IMG/VR virus record: IMGVR_UViG_3300032233_002382
Span: 1 to 64,000 of that record
Source: a virus
Lineage: Duplodnaviria; Caudoviricetes
Reading direction: 5' to 3' (one strand)
DNA length: 64,000 nucleotides
Positions 60,879-63,040 of the stretch are shown here, piece by piece. Each line of letters starts with the position of its first letter. Position 1 is the first letter of the stretch. Below the pieces are notes generated by a model. The model was not told where the DNA came from. It searched no databases and saw nothing but the letters and a program-made list of their open reading frames with translations. Position numbers and translations under genes: made by a program.

Positions 60879-61385
60879 ATGAAACCAACCGACCTATCGT
60901 CAGCTCTACGCCGCATCGCTTCGAAAATCGAAGCTTCAAAATCCCCAAGCCGAGAACTCGTACTCAAAGATTTGAATAGTTTGGTTCGGAAGATGGCTAT
61001 GGATGATGATTCTCAGGATGATAGTAGTCTTCCTACCGGCGTACATGAAGTCATATCTATGCCGAATGCCGAGTTCACTGTCACTATCGATTGTACGAGG
61101 GGGAGTTCTGGAGTCATAGGTGAGTGTACCATCCAGATACAATCTGAGTGGTCTGAAATCCCGTCTGTAGTTTCTGCTGTACAAAGTATTGATAGAGAAA
61201 TCAACAGTGCCACCACTGGTGAATATTGGGCTATGGTACCAGACAACTTGCCCAAGGCGGCTCGAAGCGCCACGGACGGTTGGATAACTGGATACCTTGT
61301 GTGGTGCTTAGAAAATGGGAAATTCGAAGGCCAACCTGATATCGGTCAGTTTATTTTCAAGTTTGACGTTCTTTTCGAAGGCTAA
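60879..61385 (+). CDS. Protein with N-terminal PSxLSxxLRRIA domain
   Basis: MKPTDLSSALRRIASKIEASKSPSRELVLKDL; GGAGG RBS. Confidence 0.8.
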   Translation: MKPTDLSSALRRIASKIEASKSPSRELVLKDLNSLVRKMAMDDDSQDDSSLPTGVHEVISMPNAEFTVTIDCTRGSSGVIGECTIQIQSEWSEIPSVVSAVQSIDREINSATTGEYWAMVPDNLPKAARSATDGWITGYLVWCLENGKFEGQPDIGQFIFKFDVLFEG

Positions 61386-61463
61386 TAACCGGCTAGATGA
61401 CGATCATGATTCCATTCACGAATCATGAGCCAAACTAAGCGAACCAAAGAATCTTCGATGTAT

Positions 61464-61521
61464 AAAAAGCCGGAGTGATAAGCGCACCAGACTGAAACTG
61501 GGCTTATCACTCCGGCTTTTT
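61464..61521. terminator. Bidirectional intrinsic terminator
   Basis: AAAAAGCCGGAGTGATAAGC...GCTTATCACTCCGGCTTTTT. Confidence 0.85.
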
Positions 61522-61539
61522 CTTTCCAGATCTTCATAT

Positions 61540-61617: not shown

Positions 61618-61619
61618 AA

Positions 61620-61795
61620 ATATCCCATCAGGTCCGGTCGGCGTTGCAGCGCCGCCCTTCGCATACTGCAATATACCGCGCTTTCTCAAAGGCGCGCCTG
61701 ATGGAAAACGAGTCCCTGCCGGTCAATTCCGGTAGATTCACGGTGTTCAGCACACCGCCATTCTTTTACCGCCCTTAGCGGGCAGTCCAGGGAAA
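61620..61795 (-). ncRNA. Candidate structured RNA between tRNA-Lys and tRNA-Arg
   Basis: No ORF; nested stems CCATCAGG/CCTGATGG and TCCCTG/CAGGGA enclosing several hairpins. Confidence 0.4.
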
Positions 61796-61871
61796 TGGTG
61801 AGGACGGTGGGGTACGATCCCACAACCAACGGCTTAAAAGGCCATTGCTCTACCAATTGAGCTACGTCCCC
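61796..61871 (-). tRNA. tRNA-Lys(TTT) with non-canonical T-loop
   Basis: GGGGACG...ATGGC CTTTTAA GCCGT...GTGGG ATCGTAC CCCAC CGTCCTC A CCA. Confidence 0.9.
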
Positions 61872-62195
61872 GAAATCTGACTGATTTTACATTTAAAGTG
61901 TCGGCTCGCCCCATAACCCGACCGAATTGCCGAGTATTTTCCACCCGCTGCCGACCGATCCGCCTGAGGAAAGACGAACCCCCTGTGATTACGATTTTAG
62001 GAGTGGTAAATCGCGTGCGGCTCACCGCAAGCCGTTTTTATTTCTTGTTGGCTCGCCCCGTCGGGATTCCACTCCCGAACACCGCCGCTACCAACTTGTG
62101 CTTCCTGGAAAGGTTTAACAGGAAGCTTTGCCCCTGTGATCCGCTGAGAGGCGGTAGATGAATTCGCCTTCAGCTTGCGCTCACGCTCGCGTTTG
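61872..62195 (-). ncRNA. Candidate structured RNA of about 300 nt
   Basis: Several hairpins, internal repeats GGGGCGAGCC and TCACAGGGG, promoter-like motif at 62221. Confidence 0.45.
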
Positions 62196-62222
62196 CTTGA
62201 CGTTCGATTGTCGAGATTTCCG

Positions 62223-62444
62223 CTATCGCTTAGGCTTAATAGTCCCGATGATAGGCGATTCATCCTCGGTAGACCAGAGGGCATTCAGGGCTCTTTCCAG
62301 AGCCCTGGGATCTTCCATGACTTCTGACACGACTGCAACATTAGGGATGTCGAGCAAAAGTTCTTCATTGATTGGACCTGAATAAACGGGCTCGTTTCCA
62401 AGCGTAACGCGGAATTCTTTAGAAGCTGGAATTTTGATCTTCAT
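62223..62444 (-). CDS. Hypothetical protein
   Basis: GAGG RBS before MKIKIPAS. Confidence 0.6.
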   Translation of the reverse strand: MKIKIPASKEFRVTLGNEPVYSGPINEELLLDIPNVAVVSEVMEDPRALERALNALWSTEDESPIIGTIKPKR

Positions 62445-62620: not shown

Positions 62621-63040
62621 TTAAATATCTACTAGACCAGCGTGATGCTCAGCATGACAGTTATGGCAAAGCAAAGCACACTTATCTATTTCTTCTTTTA
62701 TTATTTCCCATCTTCTCGTTCGACCATCGTTCAATCCAAACGATTTTTGGGATTTGTCTTTATGGTGGAAGGTTAGTGCTGCTAACGATTTAGAATACCC
62801 ACAAATTTCACATTTCCCGCCTTTGTATTCTACTGATTTCCTCTTCATCTCTTGTCGATAAGCTGTAACAAGAGCCATATTCTTTTGTTTCTTATCGAAT
62901 CCTGGCAGTCCGGGGCCTGACTTCTGGTTCTTAAAAGGGCTGCACTTGAAACACTTTGTTCGGTTTGAAAGGGAGTGAGTCTTACCTTCAATCGTAATCA
63001 ACTTGGGTATTTCACCACCACAGGATTTGCAGCTCTTCAT
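62621..63040 (-). CDS. HNH endonuclease (homing-type) inside the tRNA cluster
   Basis: GGKCEICGY...LTFHH...CALLCHNCHAEHH; N-terminal CxxC pairs. Confidence 0.88.
   Translation of the reverse strand: MKSCKSCGGEIPKLITIEGKTHSLSNRTKCFKCSPFKNQKSGPGLPGFDKKQKNMALVTAYRQEMKRKSVEYKGGKCEICGYSKSLAALTFHHKDKSQKSFGLNDGRTRRWEIIKEEIDKCALLCHNCHAEHHAGLVDI

Follow-up and report, generated by a model that had tools for sequence, protein, structure and literature searches.

What does a jumbo phage keep in the 350-base gap between two genes of its tRNA operon? The window, the whole stretch of 64,000 nucleotides that we analysed, is the start of a 307,777-bp IMG/VR virus record (G000) from an uncultured jumbo phage with 46% GC. 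The minus-strand tRNA operon that houses the gap has the order tRNA-Leu, tRNA-Ser, a 743-nt spacer, tRNA-Leu, two ORFs, tRNA-Asn, an HNH gene, tRNA-Tyr, tRNA-Gly and ORF73, followed by the candidate RNA, tRNA-Lys(UUU), a 178-nt spacer, tRNA-Arg(UCU) and the 51-codon ORF51. A first-pass annotation had proposed a non-coding RNA of about 300 nt, with its own promoter motif and internal repeats, and had read the repeats as a sign of a protein-sponging or multimerising RNA. We find its observation confirmed and its interpretation partly supported. In our view, the gap likely encodes a structured minus-strand RNA about 320 nt long (about 62193 to 61872), built of two homologous modules in tandem, each of about 140 nt, and belonging to an uncatalogued phage RNA family. 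The immediate neighbourhood is as follows.

62223..62444, minus strand: ORF73, a small acidic protein gene; its stop codon abuts the promoter motif, and its codon-usage score is typical of the genes of this phage
62222-61872, minus strand: the candidate RNA stretch, in the 350-base gap between ORF73 and tRNA-Lys
61796..61871, minus strand: tRNA-Lys(UUU), the first gene downstream, on the same strand (ARAGORN and Rfam)
61617-61540, minus strand: tRNA-Arg(UCU), after a structured spacer (ARAGORN and Rfam)
61382-61537, minus strand: ORF51, 51 codons, starting 2 nt past the CCA of tRNA-Arg

Both ORF73 and the convergent neighbour ORF168 at first showed no relatives and looked like orphans. The starting point for homologues is a 54%-identical relative of ORF168, which leads to the syntenic Logan contig L075. 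With ORF73 as the syntenic anchor, a profile of two ORF73 proteins finds six more small contigs in Logan and ENA (ORF73 homologues P0006-P0011). The RNA is present between an ORF73 homologue and tRNA-Lys in four lineages (the window, L075/L080, L082 and L083), and two loci with an ORF73 homologue, L081 and L084, are without it. Between lineages, the RNA core is 83-90% identical, compared to 54-73% for the adjacent ORF73 gene and 74% for tRNA-Arg. That the RNA core is more conserved than the neighbouring genes argues for selection on the nucleotide sequence. There is one RNA locus per jumbo-phage genome, with no further copies in the 308 kb of this one. Two-motif scans of IMG/VR (TCACAGGGG..GGGGCGAGCC and GGGGCGAGCC..GGGGCGAGCC) return chance matches alone. 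A loose motif scan of a metagenome collection gives at least 120 matches, with chance matches only among those listed, and in prokaryote genomes the single-unit pattern has two matches, both by chance and with the other motifs absent. Relatives sought through the odd T-arm of tRNA-Lys amount to 59 loci with tRNA similarity alone and no RNA; those sought through the DNA ligase and the vWA protein are distant kin or none; and blastn against GenBank phages finds tRNA matches only, or none. In IMG/VR, the single-unit pattern identifies one further member, in phage G001.

The same contigs inform on the rest of the operon. ORF51 is kept in L075 and L080, and its conservation right after tRNA-Arg suggests that the tRNA transcript probably runs on into this small protein gene. 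The spacer between tRNA-Lys and tRNA-Arg (61618-61795, minus strand) has two multi-branched domains and folds far better than its shuffles (z -4.3 to -5). In L082, its second domain (CCAUCAGG...CCUGAUGG) persists with altered inner stems, and L075/L080 lack the entire spacer; this is probably one more small structured RNA, variably present. The 743-nt gene-free spacer from tRNA-Ser to tRNA-Leu(UAA), which lies past the window at 64078-64820 of the record (minus strand), has a z of about -3 against shuffles and is a further candidate RNA of the same operon. The HNH endonuclease gene between tRNA-Asn and tRNA-Tyr (62621-63040, minus strand) matches PHROG 2255 (E 4e-28). According to the gene table, it seems to be missing from a 78-kb variant contig that has an identical ORF73, which fits a mobile insertion. 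A group I intron splits the anticodon loop of tRNA-Lys(UUU) in L075 (10812-11031, minus strand) and L083 (755-958, plus strand), with 61-63 bits for Rfam RF00028, whose gathering score is 50; tRNA-Lys is intron-free in the window, L080 and L082.

The RNA is composed of two units, U1 and U2, joined by an A-rich linker.

62045..62193, minus strand: module U1, from comparative alignment A7 and U2-based models
62191-62178, minus strand: U1 hairpin Ph, with GUGA at the end of its loop (62184-62181)
62174-62143, minus strand: U1 hairpin Pa, with the loop motif CAUCU
62139-62136, minus strand: U1 strand UCAC of the pseudoknot P0, partner of the GUGA in the Ph loop
62135-62131, minus strand: U1 strand AGGGG
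62126-62100, minus strand: U1 hairpin Pb, GCTTCCTG/CAGGAAGC
62095-62047, minus strand: U1 Pc, GUUGGU-AGCGG .. CGGGA/UCCCG hairpin .. GGGGCGA-GCCAAC, or GTTGG...GGGGCGAG-CCAAC
62078-62061, minus strand: inner hairpin of U1 Pc, TCGGGA-GTGGAA-TCCCGA
62037..62046, minus strand: single-stranded A-rich linker between the modules, AAGAAAUAAAAA, invariant in the four lineages except for one A/C change
61898..62036, minus strand: module U2, from comparative alignments A6 and A9 and model R1
62034-62018, minus strand: U2 hairpin Ph, CGGCT-TGCGGTG-AGCCG, with GUGA in its loop (62025-62022)
62014-61991, minus strand: U2 hairpin Pa, with the loop motif CUCCU (62003-61999)
61988-61985, minus strand: U2 strand UCAC of P0, pairing with the GUGA in the Ph loop
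61984-61979, minus strand: U2 strand AGGGGG
61980-61957, minus strand: U2 hairpin Pb
61955-61900, minus strand: U2 Pc, GTCGG...GGGGCGAG-CCGAC, with an inner hairpin at 61935-61916 and GGGGCGAG at 61912-61905

The elements that the first-pass annotation had read off the minus strand are all there: GGAAA-N14-CGTC at 62221-62199, the hairpins, the stems that close right after GGGGCGAG in both Pc elements, and the two occurrences of TCACAGGGG, at 62139 and 61988. In both units the order is Ph (3-4 bp), Pa, UCAC, a fixed AGGG, Pb and Pc. P0 is an H-type pseudoknot in which the GUGA of the Ph loop and the downstream UCAC enclose the variable hairpin Pa. Pa and Pb vary in sequence, and the pyrimidine motif of the Pa loop is fixed (CAUCU in U1, CUCCU in U2). 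Pc is a GUYGGY/GCCRAC helix that brackets the invariant purine strands AGCGGYGG and GGGGCGA around its inner hairpin. The junction strands of the module are fixed, and the helices covary. In U2-type units, AGGG and the UCCU of the Pa loop could form a second pseudoknot; these bases are invariant and thus give no covariation signal.

The two units share the 10-mers ATCACAGGGG and GGGGCGAGCC, in the same order and with offsets of 151 and 147 nt. Two colinear exact 10-mers are matched in 4 of 20,000 dinucleotide shuffles, so the repeat is non-random, and the repeated motifs do not recur elsewhere in the genome. nhmmer finds no connection between U1 and U2, and we have no joint model of the units, as MAFFT misaligned them and automatic model alignments of the 5' half of U1 were inconsistent. 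A model made from U2-type units, R2, scores all four copies of U1 at 22.7-25.6 bits (E 2e-4 to 8e-4). The U1 of the window, with 14 bits under R1, has 23.2 bits under R2 (E 0.006 over the whole genome). In a control of 1.27 Mb of unrelated phage and metagenome loci, the best R2 matches have 18.8 and 14.4 bits, the former sitting within an 814-codon ORF. Repeats and R2 scores together demonstrate, at the level of sequence comparison, that U1 and U2 are homologous modules, which is what the internal repeats of the first-pass annotation turn out to be.

The covariation analysis draws on four lineages and one distant phage, and its counts are therefore small. For the full RNA (alignment A4), 97% of the cells are paired and 10 pairs are compensatory (0/500 shuffles; 0-3 in slid controls). 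U1 (A7) has 97.4% of its cells paired and 8 of 39 pairs compensatory (0/500 shuffles), and U2 (A6) has 100% paired and 4 of 38 compensatory (3/500 shuffles). When unit B of G001 is added to U2 (A9), 100% of the cells are paired and 19 of the 38 pairs are compensatory (0/500 shuffles), in an alignment fitted to the model, which favours the structure. Considering how few the sequences are, this is strong covariation. Homologue collection and covariation were the checks proposed in the first-pass annotation, and what they return (four lineages and G001, with 0/500 shuffles for A4, A7 and A9) bears out a structured, non-coding RNA of about 300-320 nt.

P0 itself covaries. Its strands are GUGA/UCAC in general, AUGA/UCAU in the U2 of L075, and GCGA/UCGC in G001. 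In L075, U1 keeps GUGA/UCAC; since the change is limited to U2, the pairing is within the unit and does not link U1 to U2. The protein-sponging or multimerising reading is left unsupported, and the covarying GUGA/UCAC is an internal pseudoknot. Copies of the same unit on separate molecules may pair with each other. The pairs also identify the strand. G-U pairs occupy 18 of 150 cells in U2 and 9 of 155 in U1, a total of 27 that become A-C mismatches on the opposite strand; because these cells mispair on the plus strand, the functional form is a minus-strand RNA. The folding energy is not exceptional: MFE z is -1.0 to -1.9, weaker than for the spacer between tRNA-Lys and tRNA-Arg, and z-scores are unremarkable for the whole stretch and for each unit. 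The case for a structure rests then on the comparison of homologues and not on thermodynamics. Homologues, selection on nucleotides, covariation, strand-specific G-U pairs, module homology, the non-coding character and the promoter motif make a structured RNA probable.

The distant member comes from a very different genome. Phage G001 has 85.8 kb, terminal repeats, no tRNAs, and 64.8% GC, 18 points apart from the jumbo phage, with which it has 4 ORFs in common. Its unit B (L222B) scores 57 bits with the U2 model R1 (E 1e-11), lacks a promoter of its own, and ends 30 nt ahead of the Shine-Dalgarno and ATG of a 124-codon ORF. The intergenic gap before this one, of 350 nt, is taken up by two weaker units, A1 and A2; it lies in a replication gene cluster that spans from a Sak4-like protein to a family A DNA polymerase. 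A U-tract (GCUUCUUUUUC) comes after the final helix of unit A2. Overall, the units precede one tRNA gene and two ORFs, and neither ORF has a Pfam or named PHROG family. The link to tRNA clusters that the first-pass annotation had drawn, as for GOLLD and ROOL, holds for the four lineages, where the RNA is beside tRNA-Lys, and fails for G001, whose member is amongst replication genes. The two phages share a protein of 214/218 aa, 62% identical, at 112914-113570 (plus strand) of the jumbo phage and 17875-18519 (plus strand) of G001. It has no Pfam or PHROG family, and amongst its look-alike clusters in the ESM Atlas, 36-58% of the members of the top named ones have an SLT lytic transglycosylase domain. 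As a candidate partner of the RNA we dropped it: it looks like an SLT-type cell-wall enzyme, a likeness that concerns some cluster members only.

The first-pass annotation could match the RNA to no known family, and neither can we. Rfam 15 has nothing in 61872-62222 at gathering score or at E up to 10, nothing in the G001 units at E up to 10, and nothing in the RNA of the other homologues at E up to 0.1; its scope includes GOLLD, ROOL, HEARO, glycine, c-di-GMP, small ribozymes, Y RNA/YrlA, tmRNA and the group I intron. As to a tRNA or tRNA-like pseudogene, ARAGORN and RF00005 find only the flanking tRNAs, and the fold is not tRNA-shaped.

The predicted ends of the RNA involve two more elements.

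62199..62221, minus strand: ECF-type promoter-like motif, GGAAA (62221-62217), N14, CGTC (62202-62199)
61872..61899, minus strand: A/U-rich 3' tail, ACUUUAAAUGUAAAAUCAGUCAGAUUUCG, reaching tRNA-Lys

GGAAA-N14-CGTC occurs at 14 sites in the 308-kb genome, with 2 expected; all of them are in the first 68 kb, and 62221 is one. Upstream of the RNA, GGAA(A/G)-N14-CGTC is found in three of the four lineages that bear it. Promoters in evolution retain boxes and spacing while the spacer sequence diverges. In L082 and L083, the boxes and the 14-nt spacing are kept despite an unrelated spacer sequence; L084, which is without the RNA, has GGAAG-N14-CGTT, and L075/L080 carry an altered motif. The 62221 site appears to belong to an ECF-type early promoter set characterised by GGAA(A/G)-N14-CGT(C/T), fixed spacing and enrichment in the early region. 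The excess of sites, and the boxes and spacing kept in relatives, suggest that the claim of a promoter motif for this RNA was sound. The Ph of U1 starts 8-10 nt past CGTC, which predicts an RNA start near 62193. At the other end, the tail element ACUUU-N2-AUGUAA is kept in four of four lineages. Between U2 and tRNA-Lys we find no terminator and no sequestered ribosome site. With no terminator ahead of tRNA-Lys the transcript should continue, and RNase P would make the 3' end at 61872. RNase P processing of tRNA precursors is established, and by analogy a cut at 61872/61871 would release the RNA. On the plus strand, the U2 Ph hairpin and the A-rich linker (62017-62045) resemble an intrinsic terminator, a hairpin and then TTTTTATTTCT, which could halt antisense transcription from the convergent ORF168.

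How might such an RNA act? Fixed junctions, covarying helices and a pseudoknot are the pattern of a folded binding or catalytic unit. Every member of the family, in two unrelated phages, is co-oriented with a gene and directly upstream of it. That siting, together with the A2 helix and its U-tract, leads us to put a role in cis first: a cis-acting leader is the reading that, judging from gene arrangement, we tentatively favour and rank slightly ahead of a trans-acting RNA. Transcription would start just upstream, at an ECF-type early promoter that belongs to the phage itself. The transcript would have the RNA as its leader and go on into tRNA-Lys, tRNA-Arg and ORF51, and an RNase P cut at tRNA-Lys would free the 3' end of the RNA. 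Each module would be a folded unit that binds a small ligand or a protein, and would act in cis on its own transcript, through read-through, processing or stability of the part downstream. Against a role in cis, the downstream genes (a tRNA and two small ORFs) share nothing, neither a terminator nor a sequestered ribosome site stands before tRNA-Lys, the promoter motif is altered in L075/L080, and unit B is promoterless. Against an essential role, the L081 and L084 loci keep an ORF73 homologue without the RNA. The generic riboswitch pattern, a conserved aptamer with fixed junctions and covarying helices, is apparent in the alignments. A narrower proposal, that each module is the aptamer of a new riboswitch class or a new ribozyme and gates read-through downstream, singly or in tandem, seems to us doubtful.

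The possibility that we rank second, and consider a real one, is that of one or more stable trans-acting RNAs, which would serve as decoy or scaffold for a host or phage protein. RNase P would release them by analogy with tRNA maturation, and a split at the A-rich linker would perhaps yield two species of about 140 nt. An own promoter motif and a tRNA-defined 3' end suit this, as do the conserved single-stranded A/U-rich linker and tail, which could be RNase E sites, and the display of fixed purine strands and loop motifs (CUCCU, CAUCU). T4 offers a precedent: its tRNA operon includes, next to a gene for a homing endonuclease, two stable RNAs (119 and 139 nt). The G001 units fit badly, as they lie within a protein-coding operon with no tRNA to set their ends. 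Nor does a gene for a partner protein travel along: the acidic ORF73 occurs without the RNA in L081 and L084, and the sole well-conserved protein common to both phages is the SLT-like one.

The RNA might also be a structured insertion of selfish or neutral nature, in effect a mobile intergenic element that spreads between phages and persists by that alone. This would explain presence and absence among close relatives (L081 and L084 without RNA) and the occurrence in two phages with only 4 common ORFs and 18 GC points between them. The neighbourhood is mobile too, with the HNH gene, the group I intron in the tRNA-Lys of relatives and the variably present spacer. We find this improbable, as we see neither terminal repeats nor a target duplication and no nuclease or recombinase gene associated with it, each jumbo-phage genome has a single locus, and fixed junctions with compensated helices point to selection on the folded RNA.

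Still less probable is a ribozyme, self-cleaving or with some other catalytic activity, that would process the polycistronic transcript. Phage-like contexts are a known setting for small ribozymes (twister, pistol and hatchet among them), which are often present there in multiple copies. The invariant junction nucleotides, covarying helices and compact pseudoknotted fold would agree with one, as would multiple copies between cistrons in two unrelated phages. But no Rfam ribozyme family matches even at E up to 10, 140 nt exceeds the known small self-cleavers, and the sequence names no cleavage site. A DNA-level element (protein-binding repeats, an origin or a packaging site) could account for exact repeated 10-mers and for conservation above the neighbouring genes, but compensatory helix changes, 27 G-U cells that work only as minus-strand RNA, and motifs that recur nowhere else in the genome make it very improbable.

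The weakest alternative is a small protein gene, in the 95-codon open frame ORF95 (61997-62284, minus strand) or in another frame. The first-pass annotation had set conservation of this frame as protein against the RNA; the frame has no relatives and is broken. Amongst 1.84 billion representative proteins ORF95 matches only itself, and it has no relative in IMG/VR. In L075, indels and stops break the frame and the longest minus-strand ORF has 42 codons; the gene listings for L080, L082 and L083 include no such gene, and gene callers passed over ORF95 on two other contigs. Its start lies upstream of the promoter motif, inside ORF73, and the conserved 10-mers are in different reading frames in U1 and U2. 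On the other side, its codon-usage score is intermediate, at the 9th percentile of real coding chunks and in the top 6% of off-frame windows, and its end, I-Y-H-S, is loosely like the [VI]-H-x-S C-terminal tag of about 35 small proteins of the phage. The ending [VIL]-[HMQ]-x-S-stop is found on about 35 small ORFs across the genome, most of them at 34-59 kb. With the frame broken and no relatives, we give a protein gene next to no credence.

If the cis-acting leader that we favour is indeed a sensor or gate, a sensed ligand would control how much tRNA-Lys(UUU) and tRNA-Arg(UCU) of its own the jumbo phage supplies. Host anticodon nucleases commonly target tRNA-Lys(UUU), and a sensor before it would tie RNA-based regulation to the contest between phage and host over this tRNA. 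The same module before ordinary genes in an unrelated phage is separable from tRNA biology, which makes a sensing or processing role in cis testable. Copies of 140 nt with sharp invariant strands suit in-line probing, SHAPE and structure determination.

That phage tRNA operons can house stable RNAs of unexplained function has been known since T4. The RNA here would be a further one, unrelated in sequence, with a well-defined pseudoknotted module and probably its own promoter. The closest case by arrangement is T4 rnaC (species 1, 139 nt) and rnaD (species 2, 119 nt), at 70908-71171 of NC_000866: also a tandem pair of 120-140-nt non-coding RNAs in a phage tRNA operon with an adjoining homing-endonuclease gene, stable, co-transcribed with the tRNAs and of no known function. 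Model R1 does not match them (best score in 68500-74500 of NC_000866, 3.9 bits, E 1.7, on the opposite strand). The T4 RNAs come after the last tRNA, and rnaC ends, as we read its sequence, in a tRNA-like arm; unlike them, the present RNA precedes tRNA-Lys, is pseudoknotted, and has a family member in a phage without tRNAs. GOLLD and ROOL (RF01998 and RF03087) are large ornate RNAs often found beside phage tRNA genes. Our RNA resembles them in having a complex conserved fold in a phage, here adjacent to a tRNA; it differs in size and build, with 2 x 140 nt in repeated modules, compared to more than 500 nt, and in having no Rfam match. The tandem-aptamer glycine riboswitch (RF00504) is similar in its two homologous aptamer-like domains in a 5' leader, just past a promoter motif here, and in its fixed junction nucleotides with covarying helices. 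It differs from the present case, where Rfam has no match, no expression platform is identified before tRNA-Lys, the downstream genes are functionally unrelated, and nothing points to a particular ligand. In its niche, then, this RNA joins the little-understood RNAs that phage tRNA operons contain, and its fold and sequence set it apart as a new family, not tied to tRNAs.
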